Below are positions 3,003 through 49,968 of a stretch of DNA of 64,000 bases, piece by piece. Source of the DNA: Escherichia phage vB_EcoM_G8; the sequence record NC_054915.1; one strand, 5' to 3'. Below the pieces are notes generated by a model. That model saw only the letters and a program-made list of their open reading frames with translations. It searched no databases and was not told where the DNA came from. The translations under genes were made by a program, and so were the position numbers. Every line of letters starts with the position of its first letter. Position 1 is the stretch's first letter.

Positions 3003-4205
3003 TTATTTTGTAATAATGTCAAACTGTTCTTTAAAGCAGAAGCTTGAATCTTGATGCTGATACAAAAATTCATAAGCTTTTTCGCGTTCACGGTCATAAA
3101 GAGTTCGGTCAGATGACAGTTCTTTAATACGCTCGAATGTTGATTCCATGTCATTTTCATCAAACCAAATGATACCGCTATCATGCGAGGTCAAAGGAGT
3201 ATTATCAACACGGAATTTTAAATTTTCGCCAGTAGATTTCCAAAATACCGGAATTGTTCCACATGCACCAAGCTCGAGATGAGTATATTCTAAAGAGCGC
3301 TGTAGATATTTTTTATCCAACTTACTCAACTGATAACCAAATCCGGATTTACTCATGCGTTCAAGCATTTCGCTATTTACATAACGGTCAAGAATTTGCG
3401 TTGGCAAATTAGGAGCAATTTTAATTTGGTCTACTTGATGAAGACGATAATACTCGTATGGAATTCCTTTTTCTTTAATAGGAATGAACGCTGGAGAACG
3501 TTCCAGACCTTCCATAATAGTACTTAGTCCTGCAGGTTTAAGATGTTTTTCATGAAAATCAAACATCTGATAAAAACCTTTCCATGTAGTCGTACGACCA
3601 ATCCAACGGTTGATATTCATGTTAATTTCAGAAACATCTTTCCAGTAGGTTGATCGAACCTTCGCAATATCCATAGGAGGCTGAAAGTTGTATACAGTCG
3701 GTGCTTCTTCAATATCATCAAACAGAGAAACTGTTTCTGGATACCATTCTTTCATCAGAACTTTATTAAAATCGCCATTATCAGAATGACTAAAAATAAC
3801 ATCAGCTCGACGAACAGTTTCTTCTAATCCCAAATTTCGGCGCAAAGAAAGAGAAGAATGGTCATGTTGATAAACTACAACACGAACCGAAGGTTTAATG
3901 TTATCAATAATTTTTTTATAGTTATTAATAGTGTCTTCTTCAACTGAAGTAGCAGGAACTGAATTGATAATTAGAATATCACAATCATTTACCAGCTTAA
4001 GTGTTTTATCGTATTCTTTTGCCAATAAAACCGGAATTGAAAATGATTTATAATCATGCGCACAGTTACGAGTAAATGATTTATCTTTAGCATAAACCAA
4101 AGTTACTTCATGACCATTTTTAATAAACCAATCACGCTGCTCAAGAGAAAATTTAGTTACACCGCAACCTTCAAGACCCCGAGCCATAAAAATGCAAATA
4201 CGCAT
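3003..4205 (-). CDS. agt: DNA alpha-glucosyltransferase
   Basis: 400 aa from ATG at 4205 (ORF track start at 4226 is an upstream TTG); AAGAGGAAA Shine-Dalgarno; N-terminus MRICIFMARGLEGCGVTKF matches recalled T4 a-gt. Confidence 0.9.
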   Translation of the reverse strand: MRICIFMARGLEGCGVTKFSLEQRDWFIKNGHEVTLVYAKDKSFTRNCAHDYKSFSIPVLLAKEYDKTLKLVNDCDILIINSVPATSVEEDTINNYKKIIDNIKPSVRVVVYQHDHSSLSLRRNLGLEETVRRADVIFSHSDNGDFNKVLMKEWYPETVSLFDDIEEAPTVYNFQPPMDIAKVRSTYWKDVSEINMNINRWIGRTTTWKGFYQMFDFHEKHLKPAGLSTIMEGLERSPAFIPIKEKGIPYEYYRLHQVDQIKIAPNLPTQILDRYVNSEMLERMSKSGFGYQLSKLDKKYLQRSLEYTHLELGACGTIPVFWKSTGENLKFRVDNTPLTSHDSGIIWFDENDMESTFERIKELSSDRTLYDREREKAYEFLYQHQDSSFCFKEQFDIITK

Positions 4206-22309: not shown

Positions 22310-23320
22310 TCATTTATAATAACTTCGGTGGTTTTCAAGATAGACCTTCTCAAGGAAGTCATCCCAGAAACTCATGTCTACTGTTTTAGGCATACCATTC
22401 TTAGAAGCTTCAGTAGATGCTGCTTCTACTTGATCGACCACATCTTCCAAAAACTCTTGAACTGTTTTAAATGGATGTTTACCCAACTTCACGTCGAGAA
22501 TAAATGGAGCATCTTGGAGTGGATAAATCAAGTCGCCAGTTTTGTAAATTTCCAATAGTTGAAGTCCACCACGACAAGCATGACTTAGTGCTTTCCAATC
22601 AATACCTTCATTAGCTTCGGCCTTACGAGCACGTTCACCATATTCAGCATCTAATTTGTTCAGTGACTGCTTAAGCTCAATAAGAGAAAGCGTTGTCTGA
22701 TATTTACGACCCAGCACTGTATAGAACGTTTGTGGACCTGTTTTCTCATGATTATGGAACACCCATTCACAGAATTCGTTTTCTGGAAGACGATGCTTAA
22801 TATCTTCAACTTTAGTACGACGCTGCTTAATGGAACCGTCTTCTTGGTAATCAACCCATTGCTCAGGGATTTGATTAACTACTTTCAATACATCATGTAA
22901 TGCAGCCAAACGAGAACCCTTGACGCCGTATTTAGAAGCTTGCTTGCGGACATATCCTAAATAGGATTTCATGTTAGTCGTATAAAAACGAGAACGGTTG
23001 TCTTGAATAAACTTCCACACATCAGGCAAATCAGATTTAACTACTAGTTCAGGTGGAGTGTGAAGCATATCCAATGCTACAGTTTCACCATCTGCTGCTA
23101 ATTTAAAGAAATATTTAAGACTGTATAGTTCATGGTCAATATCATCTTTAGTGTTTTTAGATGATGTGTTGTTGGTGTTTTTACTCATGTGCTCTTTAAC
23201 GTTACCGGTCAAGATATCACGAGCATGAGGGACATAAATTTCTTTAAAATCGACGTCAGATTCAGGAGTAGACGTTCCATAAAGGTGGCTACCAAAATAA
23301 GACTTAACTACAGTTTTCAT
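22310..23320 (-). CDS. Nucleotidyltransferase-fold protein (Pol-beta superfamily-like)
   Basis: 336 aa; N-terminal GS-x10-DVD signature (YFGSHLYGTSTPESDVDF) typical of minimal nucleotidyltransferases; substrate unknown. Confidence 0.5.
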   Translation of the reverse strand: MKTVVKSYFGSHLYGTSTPESDVDFKEIYVPHARDILTGNVKEHMSKNTNNTSSKNTKDDIDHELYSLKYFFKLAADGETVALDMLHTPPELVVKSDLPDVWKFIQDNRSRFYTTNMKSYLGYVRKQASKYGVKGSRLAALHDVLKVVNQIPEQWVDYQEDGSIKQRRTKVEDIKHRLPENEFCEWVFHNHEKTGPQTFYTVLGRKYQTTLSLIELKQSLNKLDAEYGERARKAEANEGIDWKALSHACRGGLQLLEIYKTGDLIYPLQDAPFILDVKLGKHPFKTVQEFLEDVVDQVEAASTEASKNGMPKTVDMSFWDDFLEKVYLENHRSYYK

Positions 23321-23504
23321 TATTCCACCTAATCATTTCAAGATATTGAACTAACTTAGCTTTAGATTTATCCAAATCCTTTTTAGCTGCTTCTATACCG
23401 TCGTATGAATATCCTTCACAATGCTCAACTGCTAATTGATATGAATCTATTTCAATATCACGTGCTAATTTAATGATTTTTTCAAACTGTTCGCGTGTTA
23501 GCAT
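23304..23504 (-). CDS. Hypothetical small protein
   Basis: Minus-strand ORF 66 aa. Confidence 0.4.
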   Translation of the reverse strand: MLTREQFEKIIKLARDIEIDSYQLAVEHCEGYSYDGIEAAKKDLDKSKAKLVQYLEMIRWNNENCS

Positions 23505-23506
23505 AC

Positions 23507-23746
23507 TTAAACTCTCGTATTATGATCGATAATTTCATCAAGAAACATATCTAACGCTTCTACAGCATTATTAACTTTATCTTCAAGTTCTTCAATACTT
23601 TTATTTGCAATGCCTGACGAAAACCAAGCAAAGTCACTAAGTTCCTCATCTGCTTTACGAATTAAAGCTACCAATTCCTTAATTTTATCCGCTTGTTCGA
23701 TACTAATCATTATTCCACCACATATGAAAGAGAGAATATTGCACAC
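23507..23746 (-). CDS. Hypothetical small protein
   Basis: Minus-strand ORF 79 aa. Confidence 0.4.
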
Positions 23747-23943
23747 GCCATGTGAGTTGCAACTTCATCACACATATTATAACGTTTCTTAAGAAGTTCT
23801 ACAAGTTCTTCACTAGTAACTTCATCCATGTCGACGAAAAAATCACCATTAATGATGACGTAGATATTTCCTTCTTGATTGAGTGCTTCAATTTTCATGA
23901 TGTTCTCCTCTTTATCCGATAGTTGTATAGTACCACAGCTCAA
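23710..23943 (-). CDS. Hypothetical small protein
   Basis: Minus-strand ORF 77 aa. Confidence 0.4.
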
Positions 23944-23956
23944 ACGGAAAGTAAAC
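23928..23956 (-). promoter_or_regulatory. T4 early promoter with conserved leader
   Basis: Minus strand GTTTAC -35, TGGTACTAT -10, conserved leader. Confidence 0.55.
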
Positions 23957-23960
23957 CGGT

Positions 23961-23989
23961 AAAATGAAAAAAGTCTCCCGAAGGAGACT
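23961..23989 (-). terminator. Rho-independent terminator
   Basis: Minus strand AGUCUCC-UUCG-GGAGACU hairpin followed by UUUUUUCAUUUU. Confidence 0.65.
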
Positions 23990-23993
23990 AACG

Positions 23994-24380
23994 TTATTCG
24001 AGGGAAAGAAGATATTTACTCTGGTAAAACATTCCAGTAATATCATCTATCGTGCTTTGAATGGCTGGAGGCATTTCTTTGTAAATGCTGTTAGATTGGT
24101 CTAGTATGCGATCAATCATTTTAATTGTGTCGGTAGGAAGTTTACTAGCATCTGGAATTGAAGGTGTGTATTTTCTACCAGAATACCCCAAATATTGCTC
24201 ACCAAATTTATCAATCAAATCTGGCAACTCGGAAAAAATAAAATCGTATGCTTTGTGTCTAGCATAACTTTTAGTTTCAAAATGTGCAGAATGAAAATAA
24301 GCTTGTGCAGCCATTAATAAACCTAAGTATTCATCTGCCTTTGAAGGTTTTCCACTTTGTGAAAAGTCGCTGAATTTCAT
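23994..24380 (-). CDS. Hypothetical protein
   Basis: Minus-strand ORF 128 aa. Confidence 0.45.
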
Positions 24381-37405: not shown

Positions 37406-37482
<77 letters not shown>

Positions 37483-37485
37483 TAA

Positions 37486-38151
37486 TTAAAATTTCATTTT
37501 TCGACCTTTAAACCATCCTTCTGGAATTGGGTCAGTTTTCTTAATACGTTTAGAAACTTTTTCATCTAATGAATGAATCCACATCATACCAAATTGAGAA
37601 TTCTTTTCGCCCTGTTGGTGTTTATTTCTGGCGTGAGATTCTTTCATTTTATTAATAGTTTCAGGAGTATGGGTCTTACCCAAGAAAGATTTAGTATTTA
37701 AAAATTTCTCTCTATACTCAGAATTATCCCAAAGCTGTTTAAACCTTTCTGAACCCATTTTACGATATTTTTCTTTAAGGTCTGGGTCGTTCTCAAATCT
37801 GGTTTTAAAAGCGGCAGCTCCTTTTAAGGAAGCTTCTTTCTTTTTATCCAAATATTCTTTAGTGTTTAAATGGTCCCAACCACCTTCACCACCTAATTTC
37901 AAATTATAAACATCAGGGCGCTTTAAAAACTCTTCAGTCACAATATTCTTTTCTGACTCAAACATAGAGGTTTTATCGTCAAAGAACTCTAATATTTCTT
38001 TAGAAAAATTTTCTATACCATACTTATCTTGGGCTCTTTTTAATAATTTACCAGAACCCATATATCCATCATCTAAATTTTCGGTAGAATGAGCGCCTAT
38101 ATAGATTTTATTATTAATTTTATTTGTTATTTTATAAGTGTAATGGAACAT
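37486..38151 (-). CDS. segB: GIY-YIG homing endonuclease SegB-like
   Basis: 221 aa; N-terminal YKITNKINNKIYIGAHS GIY-YIG motif; sits between tRNA-Arg and the other tRNAs. Confidence 0.8.
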   Translation of the reverse strand: MFHYTYKITNKINNKIYIGAHSTENLDDGYMGSGKLLKRAQDKYGIENFSKEILEFFDDKTSMFESEKNIVTEEFLKRPDVYNLKLGGEGGWDHLNTKEYLDKKKEASLKGAAAFKTRFENDPDLKEKYRKMGSERFKQLWDNSEYREKFLNTKSFLGKTHTPETINKMKESHARNKHQQGEKNSQFGMMWIHSLDEKVSKRIKKTDPIPEGWFKGRKMKF

Positions 38152-38178
38152 AAATATCTCCTATTTCTAGGAGTATTT
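38152..38178 (-). promoter_or_regulatory. Hairpin sequestering the segB ribosome-binding site, with late-promoter-like CATAAATA
   Basis: Minus strand CUCCUA-GAAA-UAGGAG stem-loop, AGGAG in the 3-prime strand 8 nt before ATG; CATAAATA immediately upstream. Confidence 0.45.
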
Positions 38179-38192
38179 ATGTTCTCAAAATA

Positions 38193-38264
38193 TGGCCCTG
38201 GGTGGAATTGAACCACCATCTGGCGATTATGAGTCGCTTGCTTGAACCTTCCAGCTACAGGGCC
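38193..38264 (-). tRNA. tRNA-Ile (anticodon CAU)
   Basis: Hand-folded: 72 nt, anticodon loop CUCAUAA, T-arm GGUUCAAUUCC. Confidence 0.8.
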
Positions 38265-38270
38265 TTGATA

Positions 38271-38343
38271 TGCTGATTGACGGAATCGAACCGCCGACGT
38301 CCTCATTACAAGTGAGGTGCTCTACCTACTGAGCTAAATCAGC
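38271..38343 (-). tRNA. tRNA-Thr (anticodon UGU)
   Basis: Hand-folded: 73 nt, acceptor GCUGAUU/AAUCAGC, anticodon loop CUUGUAA. Confidence 0.85.
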
Positions 38344-38350
38344 GAAATTA

Positions 38351-38437
38351 CGGAGGCGATAGGATTTGAACCTATGAGTCGCCGGAGCGACTGCCGGTTT
38401 TCAAGACCGGTGCATTAAACCACTCTGCCACGCCTCC
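38351..38437 (-). tRNA. tRNA-Ser (anticodon UGA)
   Basis: Hand-folded: 87 nt with long variable arm, acceptor GGAGGCG/CGCCUCC, anticodon loop CUUGAAA. Confidence 0.85.
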
Positions 38438-38439
38438 AG

Positions 38440-38513
38440 TCTCCGTGGCAGGATTTGAACCTACGACATTCTGCTCCCAAAGCAGACGCTCTACCAAACT
38501 GAGCTACACGGAG
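38440..38513 (-). tRNA. tRNA-Pro (anticodon UGG)
   Basis: Hand-folded: 74 nt, anticodon loop UUUGGGA; abuts tRNA-Ser (dimeric precursor arrangement). Confidence 0.8.
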
Positions 38514-38525
38514 TAAATTAAATTT

Positions 38526-38597
<72 letters not shown>

Positions 38598-38603
38598 AAA
38601 CTT

Positions 38604-38690
38604 TGGTACGAGAAGTGGGACTCGAACCCACAAGGAAATCATTCCGCAGCATTTTAAGTGCTGTGCCTTTACCAATTTGACCATTCTCGC
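38604..38690 (-). tRNA. tRNA-Leu (anticodon UAA)
   Basis: Hand-folded: 87 nt with long variable arm, anticodon loop CUUAAAA, encoded CCA. Confidence 0.85.
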
Positions 38691-38691
38691 G

Positions 38692-38765
38692 CTGGGAATA
38701 AAGGACTCGAACCTTTGCATCTAGCAGTCAAAGTGCTGTGCCTTTACCAATTTGGCTAATTCCCA
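38692..38765 (-). tRNA. tRNA-Gln (anticodon UUG)
   Basis: Hand-folded: 74 nt, acceptor UGGGAAU/AUUCCCA, anticodon region CUUUGAC; 1 nt from tRNA-Leu. Confidence 0.8.
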
Positions 38766-43566: not shown

Positions 43567-43574
43567 TATAAATA
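43567..43574 (+). promoter_or_regulatory. T4-type late promoter for gene 53
   Basis: Exact TATAAATA 29 nt upstream of ATG 43603, followed by GGAGGG Shine-Dalgarno. Confidence 0.6.
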
Positions 43575-43602: not shown

Positions 43603-44193
43603 ATGCTCTTTACATTTTTTGATCCGATTGAATATGCGGCCAAAACGGTGAATAAAAACGCGCCGACTATTCCTATGACAGATATTTTTAGAAACTATAA
43701 AGACTATTTTAAACGTGCTCTTGCGGGATACCGCTTACGTACTTATTATATCAAAGGTTCACCACGCCCGGAAGAATTAGCAAATGCTATATATGGAAAT
43801 CCGCAGTTGTATTGGGTTTTATTGATGTGTAATGATAATTATGATCCGTATTATGGATGGATTACTTCACAAGAAGCAGCTTATCAAGCATCTATACAAA
43901 AATACAAAAATGTAGGTGGAGACCAAATAGTATATCATGTGAATGAGAACGGTGAAAAATTTTATAATTTAATATCATACGATGATAATCCATATGTTTG
44001 GTATGATAAAGGCGATAAAGCTAGAAAATATCCTCAATATGAAGGAGCACTTGCTGCGGTCGATACGTATGAAGATGCTGTTCTTGAAAATGAAAAACTT
44101 CGTCAAATAAAAATAATAGCAAAATCAGACATTAATTCATTTATGAACGACCTTATACGTATAATGGAGAAATCTTATGGAAATGATAAGTAA
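43603..44193 (+). CDS. 53: Baseplate wedge protein gp53
   Basis: 196 aa; size and position (upstream of gene 5) as T4 gp53. Confidence 0.9.
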   Translation: MLFTFFDPIEYAAKTVNKNAPTIPMTDIFRNYKDYFKRALAGYRLRTYYIKGSPRPEELANAIYGNPQLYWVLLMCNDNYDPYYGWITSQEAAYQASIQKYKNVGGDQIVYHVNENGEKFYNLISYDDNPYVWYDKGDKARKYPQYEGALAAVDTYEDAVLENEKLRQIKIIAKSDINSFMNDLIRIMEKSYGNDK

Positions 44194-45949
44194 TAACCTT
44201 AATTGGTTTGTTGGTGTTGTTGAAGATAGAATGGACCCATTAAAATTAGGTCGTGTTCGTGTTCGTGTGGTTGGTTTGCATCCACCTCAAAGAGCACAAG
44301 GCGATGTAATGGGTATTCCAACTGAAAAATTACCATGGATGTCAGTTATTCAACCTATAACTTCTGCAGCAATGTCTGGAATTGGAGGTTCTGTTACTGG
44401 ACCGGTAGAAGGAACTAGAGTTTATGGTCATTTTTTGGACAAATGGAAAACTAACGGAATTGTCCTTGGCACTTATGGCGGAATAGTTCGCGAAAAGCCT
44501 AATAGACTTGAAGGATTTTCTGACCCAACTGGGCAATATCCTAGACGTTTAGGAAATGATACTAACGTACTAAACCAAGGCGGAGAAGTAGGATATGATT
44601 CGTCTTCTAACATTATCCAAGATAGTAACTTAGACACTGCAATAAATCCCGATGATAGACCACTATCAGAGATTCCAACCGATGACAATCCAAATATGTC
44701 AATGGCTGAAATGCTTCGCCGTGATGAAGGATTAAGATTAAAAGTTTATTGGGATACCGAAGGATATCCGACAATTGGTATTGGTCATCTTATCATGAAG
44801 CAGCCAGTTCGTGATATGGCTCAAATTAATAAAGTTTTATCAAAACAAGTTGGTCGTGAAATTACAGGAAATCCAGGTTCTATTACAATGGAAGAGGCGA
44901 CGACTTTATTTGAGCGTGATTTGGCTGATATGCAACGTGACATTAAATCACATTCTAAAGTAGGACCAGTCTGGCAAGCTGTCAACCGTTCTCGTCAAAT
45001 GGCGTTAGAAAATATGGCATTTCAGATGGGTGTTGGCGGTGTAGCTAAATTTAACACAATGTTAACTGCTATGTTAGCTGGAGATTGGGAAAAAGCGTAT
45101 AAAGCCGGTCGTGATTCATTGTGGTATCAACAAACAAAAGGCCGTGCATCCCGTGTTACCATGATTATTCTTACGGGGAATTTGGAATCATATGGTGTTG
45201 AAGTGAAAACCCCAGCTAGGTCTCTATCAGCAATGGCTGCTACTGTAGCTAAATCTTCTGACCCTGCTGATCCTCCTATTCCAAATGACTCGAGAATTTT
45301 ATTCAAAGAACCAGTTTCTTCATATAAAGGTGAATATCCTTATGTGCATACAATGGAAACTGAAAGCGGACATATTCAGGAATTTGATGATACCCCTGGG
45401 CAAGAACGATATAGATTAGTTCATCCAACTGGAACTTATGAAGAAGTATCACCATCAGGAAGAAGAACAAGAAAAACTGTTGATAATTTGTATGATATAA
45501 CCAACGCTGATGGTAATTTTTTGGTAGCCGGTGATAAAAAGACTAACGTCGGTGGATCAGAAATTTATTACAACATGGATAATCGTTTACATCAAATCGA
45601 TGGAAGCAATACGATATTTGTTCGAGGAGATGAAACGAAAACTGTTGAAGGTAATGGAACTATCCTAGTTAAAGGTAATGTTAAAGTAGTTATTCAAGGA
45701 ACAGCAGATATAACCGTTGAACAGGAAGCATACATAACTGTTGAAAAAGACACGACTGTTAATGTTAACCAAAACGCAGACATAAGTGTTAAAAATAAAG
45801 CAACTGTTAATGCTGAAAATATGGATGTCAACGTTGAGCAAGATTTAAATTTTTCAGCGACAAATATTAATTTAAGTGCATCTAATACTGTTCATATGGA
45901 TGGCGGGGTTCTTTCTAAAGTATCAGGTGGAAACGTACAGGTTGGTTAA
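44177..45949 (+). CDS. 5: Baseplate central spike / tail lysozyme gp5
   Basis: 590 aa; N-terminal OB-fold, central lysozyme domain (MLRRDEGLRLKVYWDTEGYPTIGIGHL, paralogous to e), C-terminal beta-helix octapeptide repeats (VEGNGTILVKGNVKVVIQG...). Confidence 0.95.
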   Translation: MEMISNNLNWFVGVVEDRMDPLKLGRVRVRVVGLHPPQRAQGDVMGIPTEKLPWMSVIQPITSAAMSGIGGSVTGPVEGTRVYGHFLDKWKTNGIVLGTYGGIVREKPNRLEGFSDPTGQYPRRLGNDTNVLNQGGEVGYDSSSNIIQDSNLDTAINPDDRPLSEIPTDDNPNMSMAEMLRRDEGLRLKVYWDTEGYPTIGIGHLIMKQPVRDMAQINKVLSKQVGREITGNPGSITMEEATTLFERDLADMQRDIKSHSKVGPVWQAVNRSRQMALENMAFQMGVGGVAKFNTMLTAMLAGDWEKAYKAGRDSLWYQQTKGRASRVTMIILTGNLESYGVEVKTPARSLSAMAATVAKSSDPADPPIPNDSRILFKEPVSSYKGEYPYVHTMETESGHIQEFDDTPGQERYRLVHPTGTYEEVSPSGRRTRKTVDNLYDITNADGNFLVAGDKKTNVGGSEIYYNMDNRLHQIDGSNTIFVRGDETKTVEGNGTILVKGNVKVVIQGTADITVEQEAYITVEKDTTVNVNQNADISVKNKATVNAENMDVNVEQDLNFSATNINLSASNTVHMDGGVLSKVSGGNVQVG

Positions 45950-45950
45950 T

Positions 45951-47987
45951 ATGAATTATAACGAAATTGTTGATGAATTAGTTGATACCATACAATCAGC
46001 TTGTTCAATTATTCCCGAAGGTTATTATAGACGAGTTAAATGGGAATTATACAATCCCAATAAAGAAATGATTCAACCCGATAATGGGGTTGAATGGGAC
46101 ACTGAAATTATTAAATTAGATACCCATCTTTACACCGAAAATCCATTTGGTCATTCTTCTGATACATTTACTGAATCATCTGATGGAGAAACCCAAACTG
46201 GCGTTTTTTGTCATAAAATCGGCGTGTATTTTCCAACTCAAACTGCGTTAGAAGATTACGTTGAACAAATTGGTGCAACTTTACTTCCGGGTAATACTTG
46301 GTATGGCGCTGATTTATCGAAACGTGAATTTTTTAAAACTGAAATTGAATATGATATATATCGCATTGAAAATCGCGGAGGTACATGGCATCATACGGGT
46401 CCTAGAATAGATGCTAGGACAATGATCGGTGTTAACAATGACTATACAATGTATGTTAACTTTAACGGTTTAGGAGATTATCGAAGAGCATATTTAAAAT
46501 ATTATGAAGATAAACCATGTACATATGTCGGTTTAACACTAAATTTAAATATAGATACATCAATTCCCGGTATTCCTTATTCACCTCCATCAATTATTGG
46601 AGAGCTTCCACTTAATGCAATTTCATGCGTTAATTTTACTGCCCAATTTCCATACAATGGCTTAACATCTGCAATTATTGAGGCTTGGAACACCTCAAGA
46701 GATTCATTTAAACTATATTGGGATATGTTGCCTGGTATGCCGGCAATTAGCGGAAGTGATTTCGAAAAATATTTTAATTCGGCATATACACATTTATCTG
46801 TAGCAATGGAAGAGCTTGGAAATTCGGCAATTGCTATGTGTCAATATGTTCAGCAACAAGCCTTTATGGTTTTTAAAAATTCTGTTTCACAAGTTCTAAA
46901 TATTGTCGGTGGCGGATGGGATTTATTAAAAAGTTTTTTACCTAAAATAACAATAATGGGCATATCTATTGATATTGAAGATTTATGTACATCAACAGAT
47001 GGTGTTCAAAAATTGAAGGAAACCTTTAAAAATTTTAATCTGGAAGATACTATTAGTTCAATTTATTCTGCAATGGGTTCTGCATATGACTATTCTATAG
47101 AACGCGTTAAAATGTATTCGCGGGATTTAGTTGATGCAATAACAGATTTATATGATTGGGCCTGGTCAAAATTAATGATGGCCGGTGTCGCTTTATCAAA
47201 ATTATGTGTTGATTTAGCACAAATCTGGAGCATGCCACCAATTATTCCAAATCCAGTGTGGTCTGTTATCACTTTAGTGAAGGAAATGATGAAACAAATT
47301 CCTCCATTAGATATGATTATGTCAGGTAATTTTCCTGGATTTACTGCTTCTGATGTATATCAGATGGTTATGTCTATCGTATCTGAAAAAATTAAACAAG
47401 TTTATACTGAAATAGAATCATTAAAAACCCAAGCATTGGATGTATGGAATGAAATTAAACTAAAAACACAGGAATATAAAAAGCAAACGATTGAATTTAA
47501 ACAATATTTATCAGGAATGGCTGAAAAGGTTGAAGATGAAATAACTATAGCAAAAGAGAAAGCATTACAAGAAGCTGAATCCGCTTTAAATGTTTTAAAG
47601 GATAAATATAACAGTATTAAAGACTTAATAAAAAATAAGCAGATTTCTGTGTCTGATGTATTAGATTTAGCTTTGACTGAATTTCGAAAAATTCCATTAA
47701 TTTCACAAATGGAATCATTATTATCTTTAGCTGGAGCATCTATCGATGATATAATGAAAGTATATGAAAATAGCGTTACTAAAGCAAAATCATTATATCA
47801 CGAATTCACCGATGGCGCTCGGTCAATGAAAGATCTATGCAAATCATTATACAATCAAATTTCGACTTTATGTTTGAGTAAGGTTGTGCAATGGATTAAT
47901 AAAATGCTTGGAATATTTGGATTAAGTATTACATTTCCAACAGTATCAATATGCATTCCATGCTTAAAAACTCCTATGAGGAATTAA
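45951..47987 (+). CDS. Large uncharacterised protein filling the gene 5 - gene 6 interval
   Basis: 678 aa from ATG 45951 (2 nt after gp5 stop) to stop 47987 (1 nt before gp6 ATG); hydrophobic segments near residues 286-330, 404-446, 640-672; coiled coil near 480-560; no nuclease or PAAR motifs seen. Confidence 0.7.
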   Translation: MNYNEIVDELVDTIQSACSIIPEGYYRRVKWELYNPNKEMIQPDNGVEWDTEIIKLDTHLYTENPFGHSSDTFTESSDGETQTGVFCHKIGVYFPTQTALEDYVEQIGATLLPGNTWYGADLSKREFFKTEIEYDIYRIENRGGTWHHTGPRIDARTMIGVNNDYTMYVNFNGLGDYRRAYLKYYEDKPCTYVGLTLNLNIDTSIPGIPYSPPSIIGELPLNAISCVNFTAQFPYNGLTSAIIEAWNTSRDSFKLYWDMLPGMPAISGSDFEKYFNSAYTHLSVAMEELGNSAIAMCQYVQQQAFMVFKNSVSQVLNIVGGGWDLLKSFLPKITIMGISIDIEDLCTSTDGVQKLKETFKNFNLEDTISSIYSAMGSAYDYSIERVKMYSRDLVDAITDLYDWAWSKLMMAGVALSKLCVDLAQIWSMPPIIPNPVWSVITLVKEMMKQIPPLDMIMSGNFPGFTASDVYQMVMSIVSEKIKQVYTEIESLKTQALDVWNEIKLKTQEYKKQTIEFKQYLSGMAEKVEDEITIAKEKALQEAESALNVLKDKYNSIKDLIKNKQISVSDVLDLALTEFRKIPLISQMESLLSLAGASIDDIMKVYENSVTKAKSLYHEFTDGARSMKDLCKSLYNQISTLCLSKVVQWINKMLGIFGLSITFPTVSICIPCLKTPMRN

Positions 47988-47988
47988 A

Positions 47989-49968
47989 ATGACAACTCCT
48001 GTAAATTATCAATTAACAAGAACAGCAAATGCTATTCCCGAGATATTCGTCGGGGGTACGTTTGCTGAAATAAAACAAAACCTCATTGAATGGCTTAATG
48101 GCCAAAATGAATTTTTGGATTATGATTTTGAAGGCTCAAGATTAAACGTTCTGTGTGACCTTTTGGCTTATAATACGCTGTACATTCAACAGTTTGGTAA
48201 TGCTGCTGTGTATGAAAGCTTTATGCGTACTGCTAACTTACGAAGTTCAGTTGTTCAAGCTGCACAAGATAACGGATATTTACCTACTTCAAAATCCGCT
48301 GCGCAGACTGAAATTATGTTAACATGCACTGACGCATTGAATAGGAATTACATTACAATTCCTCGCGGAACTCGCTTTTTAGCATATGCAAAAGATACTT
48401 CTGTTAATCCATATAACTTCGTTTCTACCGAAGACGTTATTGCTATTCGTGATAAAAATAACCAATATTTTCCACGTTTAAAATTGGCTCAGGGACGTAT
48501 AGTAAGAACTGAAATCATTTATGATAAATTAACACCTATTATCATTTATGATAAAAATATTGATAGAAACCAGGTTAAATTATATGTTGATGGAGCGGAA
48601 TGGATTAACTGGACAAGAAAGTCAATGGTTCATGCTGGTTCAACATCAACGATTTACTATATGCGTGAAACTATTGATGGAAACACTGAATTCTATTTTG
48701 GCGAAGGTGAAATTTCTGTTAATGCTTCTGAAGGAGCTTTGACCGCTAATTATATCGGAGGTCTTAAACCTACTCAGAACTCTACGATTGTTATTGAGTA
48801 CATCAGTACTAATGGTGCTGACGCGAACGGAGCAGTCGGATTTTCATATGCAGATACATTAACAAATATAACTGTCATCAATATTAATGAAAATCCAAAC
48901 GACGACCCAGATTTTGTCGGAGCAGATGGCGGCGGTGATCCAGAAGATATTGAGCGTATTCGCGAATTGGGTACTATTAAACGCGAAACCCAGCAACGCT
49001 GCGTAACTGCAACTGACTATGATACATTCGTTTCAGAAAGATTTGGTTCTATTATTCAAGCAGTTCAGACTTTCACTGATTCTACTAAACCTGGTTATGC
49101 ATTTATTGCTGCTAAACCTAAATCAGGTCTGTATTTAACTACCGTACAGCGTGAAGATATTAAAAATTATCTCAAAGACTATAATTTAGCTCCTATTACA
49201 CCATCAATTATTTCTCCTAATTATCTTTTTATTAAGACTAATTTAAAAGTCACATATGCTTTAAATAAACTACAAGAATCCGAACAGTGGCTCGAAGGTC
49301 AAATAATTGATAAAATTGATCGTTATTATACCGAAGATGTAGAAATTTTTAACTCATCTTTCGCTAAATCTAAGATGTTGACATATGTAGATGATGCAGA
49401 TCATTCTATCATTGGTTCATCAGCGACAATTCAAATTGTTCGTGAAGTACAAAACTTCTATAAAACGCCTGAAGCAGGTATTAAATACAATAATCAAATA
49501 AAAGATCGTTCTATGGAATCTAATACGTTTTCATTTAATTCTGGACGAAAGGTTGTAAATCCTGATACTGGTTTAGAAGAAGATGTATTATATGACGTTC
49601 GCATAGTATCAACAGACCGAGATTCTAAAGGAATTGGTAAAGTTATTATTGGTCCATTTGCTTCTGGCGATGTTACAGAAAATGAAAACATTCAGCCGTA
49701 TACAGGCAACGATTTTAACAAATTAGCAAATTCTGATGGACGCGACAAATACTATGTTATCGGTGAAATAAATTATCCGGCTGACATGATTTATTGGAAT
49801 ATCGCTAAAATTAATTTAACATCTGAAAAATTTGAAGCTCAGACTATTGAATTATATTCTGACCCAACCGATGATGTTATCTTTACTCGCGATGGTTCAC
49901 TGATTGTATTTGAAAATGACTTACGTCCACAATACTTAACTATCGATTTGGAGCCTATATCACAATGA
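47989..49968 (+). CDS. 6: Baseplate wedge protein gp6
   Basis: 659 aa; N-terminus MTTPVNYQLTRTANAIPEIFVGG; size and order as T4 gp6. Confidence 0.95.
   Translation: MTTPVNYQLTRTANAIPEIFVGGTFAEIKQNLIEWLNGQNEFLDYDFEGSRLNVLCDLLAYNTLYIQQFGNAAVYESFMRTANLRSSVVQAAQDNGYLPTSKSAAQTEIMLTCTDALNRNYITIPRGTRFLAYAKDTSVNPYNFVSTEDVIAIRDKNNQYFPRLKLAQGRIVRTEIIYDKLTPIIIYDKNIDRNQVKLYVDGAEWINWTRKSMVHAGSTSTIYYMRETIDGNTEFYFGEGEISVNASEGALTANYIGGLKPTQNSTIVIEYISTNGADANGAVGFSYADTLTNITVININENPNDDPDFVGADGGGDPEDIERIRELGTIKRETQQRCVTATDYDTFVSERFGSIIQAVQTFTDSTKPGYAFIAAKPKSGLYLTTVQREDIKNYLKDYNLAPITPSIISPNYLFIKTNLKVTYALNKLQESEQWLEGQIIDKIDRYYTEDVEIFNSSFAKSKMLTYVDDADHSIIGSSATIQIVREVQNFYKTPEAGIKYNNQIKDRSMESNTFSFNSGRKVVNPDTGLEEDVLYDVRIVSTDRDSKGIGKVIIGPFASGDVTENENIQPYTGNDFNKLANSDGRDKYYVIGEINYPADMIYWNIAKINLTSEKFEAQTIELYSDPTDDVIFTRDGSLIVFENDLRPQYLTIDLEPISQ

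Follow-up and report, generated by a model that had tools for sequence, protein, structure and literature searches.

In phage T4, the 97-aa PAAR protein gp5.4 (PDB 4KU0; PF05488) is encoded 3′ of gene 5 and is presumed to occupy the blunt end of the gp5 β-helix. The genomes of RB43, RB16 and Lw1 lack gene 5.4, and a large non-PAAR spike tip, the product of orf205w (RB43ORF205w, YP_239181; Pseudotevenvirus), has been proposed on the basis of extra density at the RB43 tip seen by cryo-EM (Mattenberger et al. bioRxiv 2025; PMC12407873). The tip density in that map (17.7 Å, C6 symmetry imposed) exceeds that of T4 and can be filled by orf205w (PMC12407873). Fused tips such as the P2 gpV Apex, extended or 'evolved' PAAR proteins and the VgrG-effector pairs of type VI secretion systems (T6SS) share with these phages the principle of a modular, exchangeable tip that is able to take additional domains into the envelope of the target.

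Here we analysed a 64,000-nt stretch of Escherichia phage vB_EcoM_G8 (NC_054915.1; referred to as the window), in which a 678-aa ORF takes up the slot between genes 5 and 6. A preliminary description of this DNA had presented the ORF as an unrecognised novelty. It is a real gene and not a new one: it belongs to the RB43 orf205w family already proposed as a spike tip (PMC12407873), and RB43, RB16, Lw1 and other phages hold it in the same slot. All genes, protein segments and promoters below are on the + strand.

A foreign cassette in a T4-like baseplate operon

The ORF (45951..47987; identified by ORF listing, homology, alignment, structural model and PMC12407873) starts at the ATG at 45951, and the resulting N-terminus, MNYNEIV, agrees with those of 30 of 30 aligned homologues. 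The GTG at 45876 was rejected as a start because it lies inside gene 5. Gene 5 (590 aa, 44177..45949), encoding the central spike/tail lysozyme with Gp5_OB, Phage_lysozyme and Gp5_C domains, ends in TAA (45947-45949) and is followed by a single T and the ORF start codon; the ORF stop codon (47985-47987) is followed by a single A and by the ATG of the T4-type baseplate wedge gene 6 (47989..49968; ORF listing and T4 comparison), whose Shine-Dalgarno sequence GAGG (47978-47981) overlaps the final ORF codons. The tiny spacers noted in the preliminary description are thus 1 nt on each side. Chance is excluded as the source of a 2-kb frame without stops in DNA of 33% G+C, and a dN/dS of 0.086 relative to phage SG1, calculated from small counts (9 synonymous and 3 non-synonymous changes), indicates purifying selection at the sequence level. 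The T4 late-promoter consensus TATAAATA occurs 5′ of gene 53 at 43567..43574, and no other + strand copy lies between 43567 and 53652. The role of late promoter is assigned from the established T4 consensus; the site probably drives a 53-5-ORF-6-7 late transcript, consistent with the co-transcription with the late baseplate operon that had been proposed for the ORF.

The gene 5 product is chimeric. Residues 1-502, through ...GNGTILVKGNV, are those of T4, and divergence starts immediately after, bearing out the earlier remark that the gp5 C-terminus differs from that of T4. The foreign β-helix end (residues 503-590, 45684..45949, delimited by alignment and record search) terminates in ...SGGNVQVG and shares 90% identity with Dhakavirus Bp7/E33 and ~41% with RB43. 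Three-way DNA alignment placed a left recombination zone at 45632..45684, in a gp5 β-helix patch common to T4-type and donor-type genes, with T4-like sequence before it and Dhakavirus/RB43-like sequence after it. DNA comparison placed the right zone at 47975..48001, over the conserved ribosome-binding site and start of gene 6, where codons 1-3 follow the donor and T4-like sequence resumes at 48001. The intervening cassette of ~2.3 kb (about 45684-47997) lies within a T4-like backbone (~97-98% nucleotide identity) and stands in for the end of T4 gp5 from residue 503, 5.1, the seg endonuclease and 5.4. Its flanks are 97.8% identical to T4, which covers 65% of a 6.6-kb query in two pieces, and in the relative PD112 the hub genes 26-51-27-28-29-48-54 share 94-98% identity with ~490 Tequatrovirus records. 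Because flanks and hub are T4-like at this level, the ORF copy belongs to a cassette gained by horizontal transfer and not to a genome that has diverged as a whole, and the window, as judged from alignment, is a natural chimera in which a T4-like phage carries a foreign cassette.

In T4 strain 147 the corresponding slot contains 5.1, a GIY-YIG ORF of the seg type that overlaps the annotated 5.3, and the PAAR gene 5.4 (97 aa), matching the small ORFs listed for T4 in the preliminary description. No homologue of gp5.4 or gp5.1 was detected by tblastn (E ≤ 1) or phmmer (--max) in the window, in line with the earlier reading, or in PD112 1-108000, the closest complete relative, which was searched alongside the window as a stand-in for the remaining genome. 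The possibility of a disguised PAAR protein was rejected: the ORF gave no PAAR_motif match in Pfam at E ≤ 1, whereas the positive control T4 gp5.4 matched at E = 9.4e-10, and the N-terminal domain has no PDB fold match. Nor does the predicted fold resemble the small β-rich cone of PAAR proteins (PF05488), and the 678-aa product has no sequence or fold similarity to the 97-aa gp5.4. PAAR tips are the majority, found in 1422 phage records compared to 214 with the ORF.

Family distribution and predicted fold

The ORF matched PHROG 5296 (E = 0, 1120 bits) with residues 1-673 aligned to positions 1-684 of the 685 in the profile, and tblastn found homologues in 214 of 50,697 phage records, 212 of them at ≥80% coverage. 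Dhakavirus copies are nearest (72%); RB43 orf205w shares 41.8% identity over 99% coverage, together with the gene 5-gene 6 slot, the gp5 C-terminal type, the missing 5.4 and a similar domain plan, an α/β N-terminal part of ~220 residues followed by an all-helical remainder. The copy described here differs from that of RB43 in residing in a Tequatrovirus with 94-98% T4-like flanks and hub. The same slot is used in RB43, RB16, Lw1, KP15/KP27, Bp7, PM2 and Miller, and the gene was directly 3′ of gene 5 in SG1, RB43, E33, PM2 and KP15, as well as in two divergent phages from metagenomes, one with a 389-aa gp5 that lacks the lysozyme. The position by gene 5 is kept throughout the family, with an HNH endonuclease gene in between in some Slopekviruses. 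An apparent natural truncation in phT4A was rejected as a sign of dispensability because the missing part is a stretch of Ns. Only 13 proteins reached E ≤ 1e-10 in a profile search against 1.84 billion representatives, all of them family members or fragments; no remote homologue outside T4-like phages and no gp5-ORF fusion was detected.

The distribution of the ORF follows that of the gp5 end. The foreign 88-aa end was found in 213 records and the ORF in 214, with matching organism counts, from which strict co-inheritance of the two can be read in the sequence records. Every ORF-linked gp5 terminates in [ST]G[GA]xVxVG, while T4 gp5 terminates in GSRIDIG, so the ORF pairs with the RB43-type rather than the T4-type β-helix end. 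The HxH iron site of the P2 gpV Apex is absent from the gp5 end found here.

AlphaFold2 modelling from a 31-sequence full-length family alignment, which contains 53 invariant columns and shows conserved patches at residues 115-129, 450-470 and 633-653, predicted a two-part fold with confidence (pLDDT 86, pTM 0.76), in contrast to the low-confidence model in the preprint on RB43 (PMC12407873). The N-terminal α/β domain (~aa 1-235, 45951..46655) has a core at aa 20-200 with pLDDT ~90 and an invariant motif, W117-Y-G-A-D121, and no structural relative of this domain was detected in the PDB. The all-helical domain (aa 285-655, 46803..47915; family alignment and model) is built from long helices predicted at 285-319, 389-426, 466-520, 529-566 and 622-655, with conserved loops IWSMPPxxPNPxW (425-437) and SGNFPGFTA (458-466). 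An ~80-residue coiled coil had been suggested from the sequence; in the model, helices 466-520 and 529-566 form an antiparallel hairpin here, a long charged segment (aa 466-566, 47346..47648) with the lowest conservation in the family. Several long hydrophobic segments had also been described, but only residues 652-672 (MLGIFGLSITFPTVSICIPCL, 47904..47966; hydropathy, alignment and model), which include the near-invariant C668 and P670, exceed the usual Kyte-Doolittle transmembrane threshold (1.76); residues 408-426 are borderline (1.41). No three-fold or pseudo-three-fold feature for docking onto a trimer was obvious in the 77-kDa protein.

Foldseek searches of BFVD gave matches confined to family members, and a sequence profile search of the PDB gave no match below E = 0.03. 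Searches of Pfam and NCBIfam found no enzymatic or toxin domain, in agreement with the earlier statement that the ORF has no recognisable nuclease, lysozyme or PAAR motifs, and no T6SS adaptor domain (DUF4123/DUF1795/DUF2169) or Rhs/PAAR carrier. The ORF is thus distinguished from extended PAAR proteins and VgrG effectors, having neither a PAAR core nor a recognisable effector or adaptor domain. Likeness to tape measures, apolipoprotein-like amphipathic helical repeats, α-pore-forming toxins of the ClyA family (YaxB, AhlC, Hbl-B) and type III secretion (T3SS) translocators (IpaB/SipB) was seen only in the variable hairpin, has the composition typical of coiled coils and stayed below every family threshold. 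Public records recurrently mis-label the homologue 'tail length tape measure protein', and the submitter of one Slopekvirus record annotated it as 'transmembrane domain and a coil domain'.

Weighing the spike-tip reading against its rivals

The ORF most likely encodes an exchangeable spike-tip module. We put at roughly 70% the probability that it is a Tequatrovirus copy of orf205w that occupies the blunt C-terminal tip of the gp5 β-helix, where T4 has the PAAR protein gp5.4 (97 aa), and the joint transfer in one cassette and the co-occurrence of ORF and gp5 end favour the suggestion, made in the preliminary description, that a changed gp5 tip goes with a changed tip partner. A virion location at the spike tip is inferred from this co-inheritance and from the published low-resolution cryo-EM of RB43. 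Homologous recombination would have brought in the ~2.3-kb cassette through crossovers in the conserved gp5 β-helix patch and over the ribosome-binding site and start of gene 6, displacing the T4 gp5 end, 5.1, the seg homing endonuclease and 5.4, and supplying the tip protein together with the last 88 residues of gp5, which would be needed as its docking platform. The ORF would then be transcribed from the late promoter 5′ of gene 53, with translation coupled to genes 5 and 6.

A dedicated folding or assembly factor, such as a chaperone or capping factor that folds or trimerises the RB43-type gp5 end and is released before the baseplate is complete or while it is being completed, without entering the virion, should also be co-inherited with the gp5 end. 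The tightness of the linkage and the translational coupling to gene 5 would fit a cognate chaperone, and T4 has morphogenetic catalysts, gp51 and gp57A, that are not found in virions; co-expression of orf205w with a gp5 β-helix fragment also failed in the hands of its authors, who did not obtain a recombinant complex (PMC12407873). However, the RB43 tip is larger than that of T4 and there is no 5.4 gene, so some component has to occupy the density; the T4 gp5 β-helix folds unaided by any such factor, and 678 aa in two domains conserved over their full length is large for a chaperone. An assembly factor is considered improbable. An ejected protein is judged quite improbable: this would be an internal or membrane-inserting protein, tape-measure- or translocon-like, carried inside the hub or tube and forming or extending a channel for DNA through periplasm and inner membrane. 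The hydrophobic C-terminus would suit it, some GenBank records name the homologue a tape measure, the weak profile-search matches are tape-measure proteins aligned over residues 473-636, tape-measure PHROGs matched part of the helical region at E 3.5e-5 to 1.3e-4 (PHROG 5296: E = 0), and sub-threshold matches to Baculo_PEP_C and apolipoprotein-type families were obtained for 10 of 31 and 4 of 31 family members, respectively. These matches nevertheless fall only in the least conserved, coiled-coil-like part, the 466-566 hairpin being their source, and seem to reflect composition; Pfam gave no tape-measure domain, and the linkage is with the outer gp5 tip rather than with gp27, gp29 or gp48. T4-like phages have one tail-length ruler per genome, and relatives have an ordinary T4-type one, gp29, in the hub cluster (genes 27-29, 48), annotated in PD112 as 'hub subunit and tail length' (22400-24172), and with the ruler role placed there and the matches weak, partial and probably compositional, the designation of the ORF as a tape measure protein was rejected.

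The preliminary description had also raised T6SS-style cargo and superinfection exclusion. A toxic cargo or membrane protein for exclusion that merely rides along in the operon would find some encouragement in a gene order resembling vgrG-effector pairs, in the one transmembrane-like segment and in the Slopekvirus submitter's remark, but the cargo idea gained no direct support, since the searches found no toxin, nuclease, lysozyme, PAAR, adaptor, other enzyme or immunity-like domain. With 1-nt spacing on either side of the ORF there is no space for an immunity gene, and none neighbours it. Nor would a toxin explain why the ORF and the gp5 end always vary together. The known exclusion genes of T4 are early ones, but the ORF lies within the late structural operon of the baseplate; this third reading is highly improbable.

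The literature was also searched for virion proteomics of phages in which the ORF has been demonstrated, and none was found. The data set for Morganella phage MP1, a possible carrier of the ORF, detected neither gp5 nor a downstream ORF, the KP15/KP27 paper contains no mass spectrometry, and the BYEP01 paper has no discussion of the locus. The ValerieMcCarty phages, encountered in the same search, are Jiaodaviruses.

If the protein is the spike tip, sheath contraction would push the spike through the outer membrane, after which, speculatively, the amphipathic helical domain and hydrophobic C-terminus might act on membrane or periplasmic partners and aid the DNA route; any membrane-active role is speculative. 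A bolder reading, which we regard as rather unlikely, is that the tip, instead of being just a passive cap, is a spike-delivered membrane-inserting device whose amphipathic helical hairpins and buried hydrophobic C-terminus refold when they meet a membrane, in the manner of α-pore-forming toxins or T3SS translocators, and that tip cassettes are modules of adaptation to the host envelope whose swaps are helped by homing endonucleases at the junction. Such a device could breach the outer membrane or build the site of DNA entry at the inner membrane, with cassettes exchanged between T4-like genera.

A natural exchange at the putative spike tip

The locus bears on what the spike tip of a contractile tail contributes to getting through the envelope, and on the passage of T4-type DNA across periplasm and inner membrane. 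T4 gp5.4 is known to matter on deep-rough LPS mutants. To our knowledge, among T4-like phages the putative orf205w-type tip stands alone in being neither a PAAR protein nor fused. At this locus nature has run the swap, with a T4-type hub and wedge, flanking wedge genes 94-98% identical to T4, and only gp5 503-590 and the putative tip gene changed. Given the putative tip role, this would place the docking determinants in the last 88 residues of gp5 and would mean that the T4 baseplate tolerates a protein of ~77 kDa at its tip site. For genetics, cryo-EM and host-range work, phages such as SG1, PD112, F26 and JEP6 can be paired with T4 as near-isogenic counterparts.

Gene order and expression signals between genes 5 and 6

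In the window, gene 53 (43603-44193, + strand) and gene 5 (44177-45949, +; 590 aa) are followed by a long single frame on the + strand that ends at 47987 and, when read from the ATG at 45951, encodes a 678-aa protein with the N-terminus MNYNEIV; gene 6 (47989-49968, +) and gene 7 come next. An in-frame GTG within gene 5, 25 codons upstream of this ATG (45876-45950), extends the mechanical ORF to 703 aa. Since every aligned homologue starts at the position equivalent to ATG 45951, this ATG, and not the upstream GTG, is the real start. The junctions read TAA-T-ATG between gene 5 and the ORF and TAA-A-ATG between the ORF and gene 6, bearing out the tight packing (1-2 nt spacers) noted in the preliminary description, and the gene 6 Shine-Dalgarno sequence GAGG lies inside the final codons of the ORF. 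The late-promoter consensus TATAAATA is present at 43567-43574 (+), upstream of gene 53, and is the sole + strand match nearby. The frame is under purifying selection, with a dN/dS of 0.086 relative to phage SG1, calculated from few changes (9 synonymous, 3 non-synonymous). The ORF list, junctions, promoter and purifying selection indicate that the ORF is a real feature and was correctly described, except for its hydrophobicity: of the "several long hydrophobic segments" proposed, only residues 652-672 are transmembrane-like, residues 408-426 being merely borderline. Eight tRNA genes (Arg-TCT, Met, Thr, Ser, Pro, Gly, Leu and Gln) cluster at 37406-38765 on the - strand, as in T4-type genomes.

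A family of large genes adjacent to gene 5

Nucleotide searches found the ORF at ≥99% identity in only 8 records, representing six phages (SG1, PD112, F26, JEP6, BYEP01 and sutha), all of which label it "hypothetical protein"; SG1 and PD112, the two whose taxonomy was checked, are Tequatrovirus. At the protein level, 214 phage records out of 50,697 contain homologues, 212 of them covering at least 80% of the ORF length, with identities of ~72% in Dhakavirus (E33, LHE83, fDHCT2), ~55% in Proteus and Providencia phages, 46% in Cronobacter phage S13, and ~41% in RB43, Lw1, Miller, KP15/KP27, Miro and many Klebsiella, Enterobacter, Citrobacter and Cronobacter phages. PHROG 5296 (function unknown) matches the ORF end to end, and no Pfam or NCBIfam family was assigned. 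An apparent N-terminal truncation in phT4A (NC_055712.1; 485 aa) is an artefact of a run of Ns at ~3400-3500 of the comparison locus (L010), in a record described as a partial genome.

The homologue lies directly 3′ of gene 5 at every locus inspected (SG1, RB43, E33, PM2 and KP15), as well as in two divergent metagenomic phages (L012, 219-3624; L011, 3-4970). One metagenomic phage encodes a 389-aa gp5 with an OB domain and beta-helix and without a lysozyme domain, followed by a 743-aa homologue; in the other metagenomic relative gp25 lies between the homologue and gp6.

The ORF is thus not the unrecognised novelty it was first taken for, and its family has already been proposed, although not proven, to form a novel large spike tip. 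An older genome paper listed the RB43 orthologue, orf205w (RB43ORF205w), as nothing more than an ORF whose Pfam hit was insignificant. More recently, gene 5.4 was reported missing from RB43, RB16 and Lw1, with orf205w (~690 residues; residues 1-220 mixed alpha/beta, the remainder helical) filling the 5.1-5.4 locus; the last 60 residues of RB43 gp5 share 15% identity with T4, the RB43 spike tip bears a larger object in a 17.7 Å cryo-EM map, and co-expression of orf205w with a gp5 beta-helix fragment failed (Mattenberger et al., bioRxiv 2025, PMC12407873). As this proposal is already published, the present finding is a rediscovery of the family in another genome.

Replacement of the PAAR tip gene by a gp5 end-ORF cassette

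The small ORFs ascribed to T4 in the preliminary description were found in T4 strain 147, where a 575-aa gp5 is followed by 5.1, a 198-aa seg-type homing endonuclease ORF (GIY-YIG/NUMOD3; L002, the T4 comparison locus, 3312-3908) overlapping with the annotated 5.3, and gp5.4 (97 aa), which matches Pfam PAAR_motif (E=9.4e-10). The reported lack of a PAAR ORF also held, with 5.1, the seg-type ORF and gp5.4 all absent from the window and from the remainder of PD112, the closest complete relative (the window maps to PD112 from ~104.8 kb through the record end), as judged by tblastn (E≤1) and by phmmer --max against 1482 stop-to-stop segments. The PAAR tip predominates, with 1422 records that extend to Vibrio, Aeromonas, Acinetobacter, Campylobacter and Rhizobium phages, and the large tip seems to be a derived type limited to Enterobacterales phages. 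Several T4-like records label the gene under the gp5.4 match "phospholipase", apparently a further mis-annotation, of the PAAR tip gene, that has spread between records.

T4 aligns in two pieces, at 97.8% identity, to the 6.6-kb region containing the ORF and covers 65% of it. The gp5 protein is T4-identical up to ...GNGTILVKGNV (residue 502) and from residue 503 shares 90% identity with the Dhakavirus end and has a clear relationship to those of PM2 and RB43, in agreement with the divergence suspected earlier; all four ends terminate in ...G(G/A)xVQVG. At the DNA level, the left switch falls within ~45632-45684, a patch conserved among T4, the window and E33. On the right, T4-type sequence resumes where gene 6 has its conserved ribosome-binding site and start, with gene 6 codons 1-3 donor-like, including a missing Asn codon, and T4-like sequence from 48001. 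The junctions therefore delimit a ~2.3-kb cassette comprising exactly the last 88 residues of gp5 and the 678-aa ORF. It is found in ~8 of ~500 Tequatrovirus-level records, and the PD112 hub genes 26, 51, 27, 28, 29, 48 and 54 are ordinary Tequatrovirus genes (94-98% identity to ~490 records). The donor is not among known phages, as the closest ORF match outside the six carrier Tequatroviruses is 72-73%.

The 88-aa foreign gp5 end was detected by tblastn in 213 records (by organism: Klebsiella 113, Escherichia 25, Enterobacter 20, Cronobacter 18, Citrobacter 13, Proteus 7, Salmonella 4, Shigella 3), the same organism breakdown as the 214 ORF records. Metagenomic gp5 proteins preceding a homologue end in ...TGGTVSVG or ...TGGTVVVG; T4 gp5 ends in ...GSRIDIG. 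This co-occurrence, taken with the cassette boundaries, is the strongest available sequence-based argument that the gp5 end and the ORF product interact.

Predicted structure and proposed function

An AlphaFold2 monomer model built from a 31-sequence alignment was confident (mean pLDDT 85.8, pTM 0.76). In it, the first ~235 residues form an alpha/beta domain, residues 285-655 a helical domain whose helices are 35-55 residues long, and residues 665-672 a short C-terminal strand. Family conservation peaks at residues 115-129 (NxWYGADLSK), at 450-470 (SGNFPGFTA with adjacent residues) and in the C-terminal helix (633-653); the long hairpin (471-566) is the least conserved part.

Alongside the family membership, position, chimerism, co-inheritance, PAAR loss, expression signals and fold established here, the best-supported reading is that the ORF product is an exchangeable spike-tip module. 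We infer that it is located in the virion, where it would take the place of the PAAR tip on the gp5 trimer, whose RB43-type end would serve as its docking platform. On sheath contraction it would cross the outer membrane together with the spike, and both would be released into the periplasm, as has been shown for the P2 spike (PMC12407873). An action of its amphipathic helices and hydrophobic C-terminus on membranes is speculative.

It is less likely that the product acts as a chaperone, absent from the virion, of the foreign gp5 end with which it is inherited, or that it is a toxin or mediates exclusion. A tape-measure-like protein that is carried internally and ejected is likewise a less likely explanation. 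The 31-member profile, searched against 1.84 billion representative proteins, gave only 13 matches at E≤1e-10, every one a family member or a fragment; its few weak matches are tape measure proteins aligned to the coiled-coil-like region, and the poorly conserved hairpin is the source of these and of weak apolipoprotein-like matches. T4-like phages usually encode a T4-type ruler, gp29, elsewhere, apart from this slot. Homologues in PQ657795, PQ657829, PQ187642 and PP889462 are annotated "tail length tape measure protein", which is probably a mis-annotation, since gp29 is encoded elsewhere in the Tequatrovirus relative PD112.

As to the origin of the putative exchangeable module, homing endonucleases occupy the gene 5-gene 6 junction in two lineages: the GIY-YIG seg-type ORF in T4 and, in the Klebsiella phage KLB27 (Slopekvirus; L013, its comparison locus, 2071-2655), an HNH endonuclease that separates gp5 from the ORF homologue. 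Double-strand breaks made by the T4 seg/mob endonucleases promote gene conversion and co-conversion of flanking markers in mixed infections, and it is plausible that endonucleases at the gene 5/tip-gene junction drive cassette exchange. What is usefully added to this known family is a Tequatrovirus chimera with precisely located breakpoints, the finding across the database that the ORF occurs together with the gp5 end, and a confident fold model; these do not make it a new kind of system.
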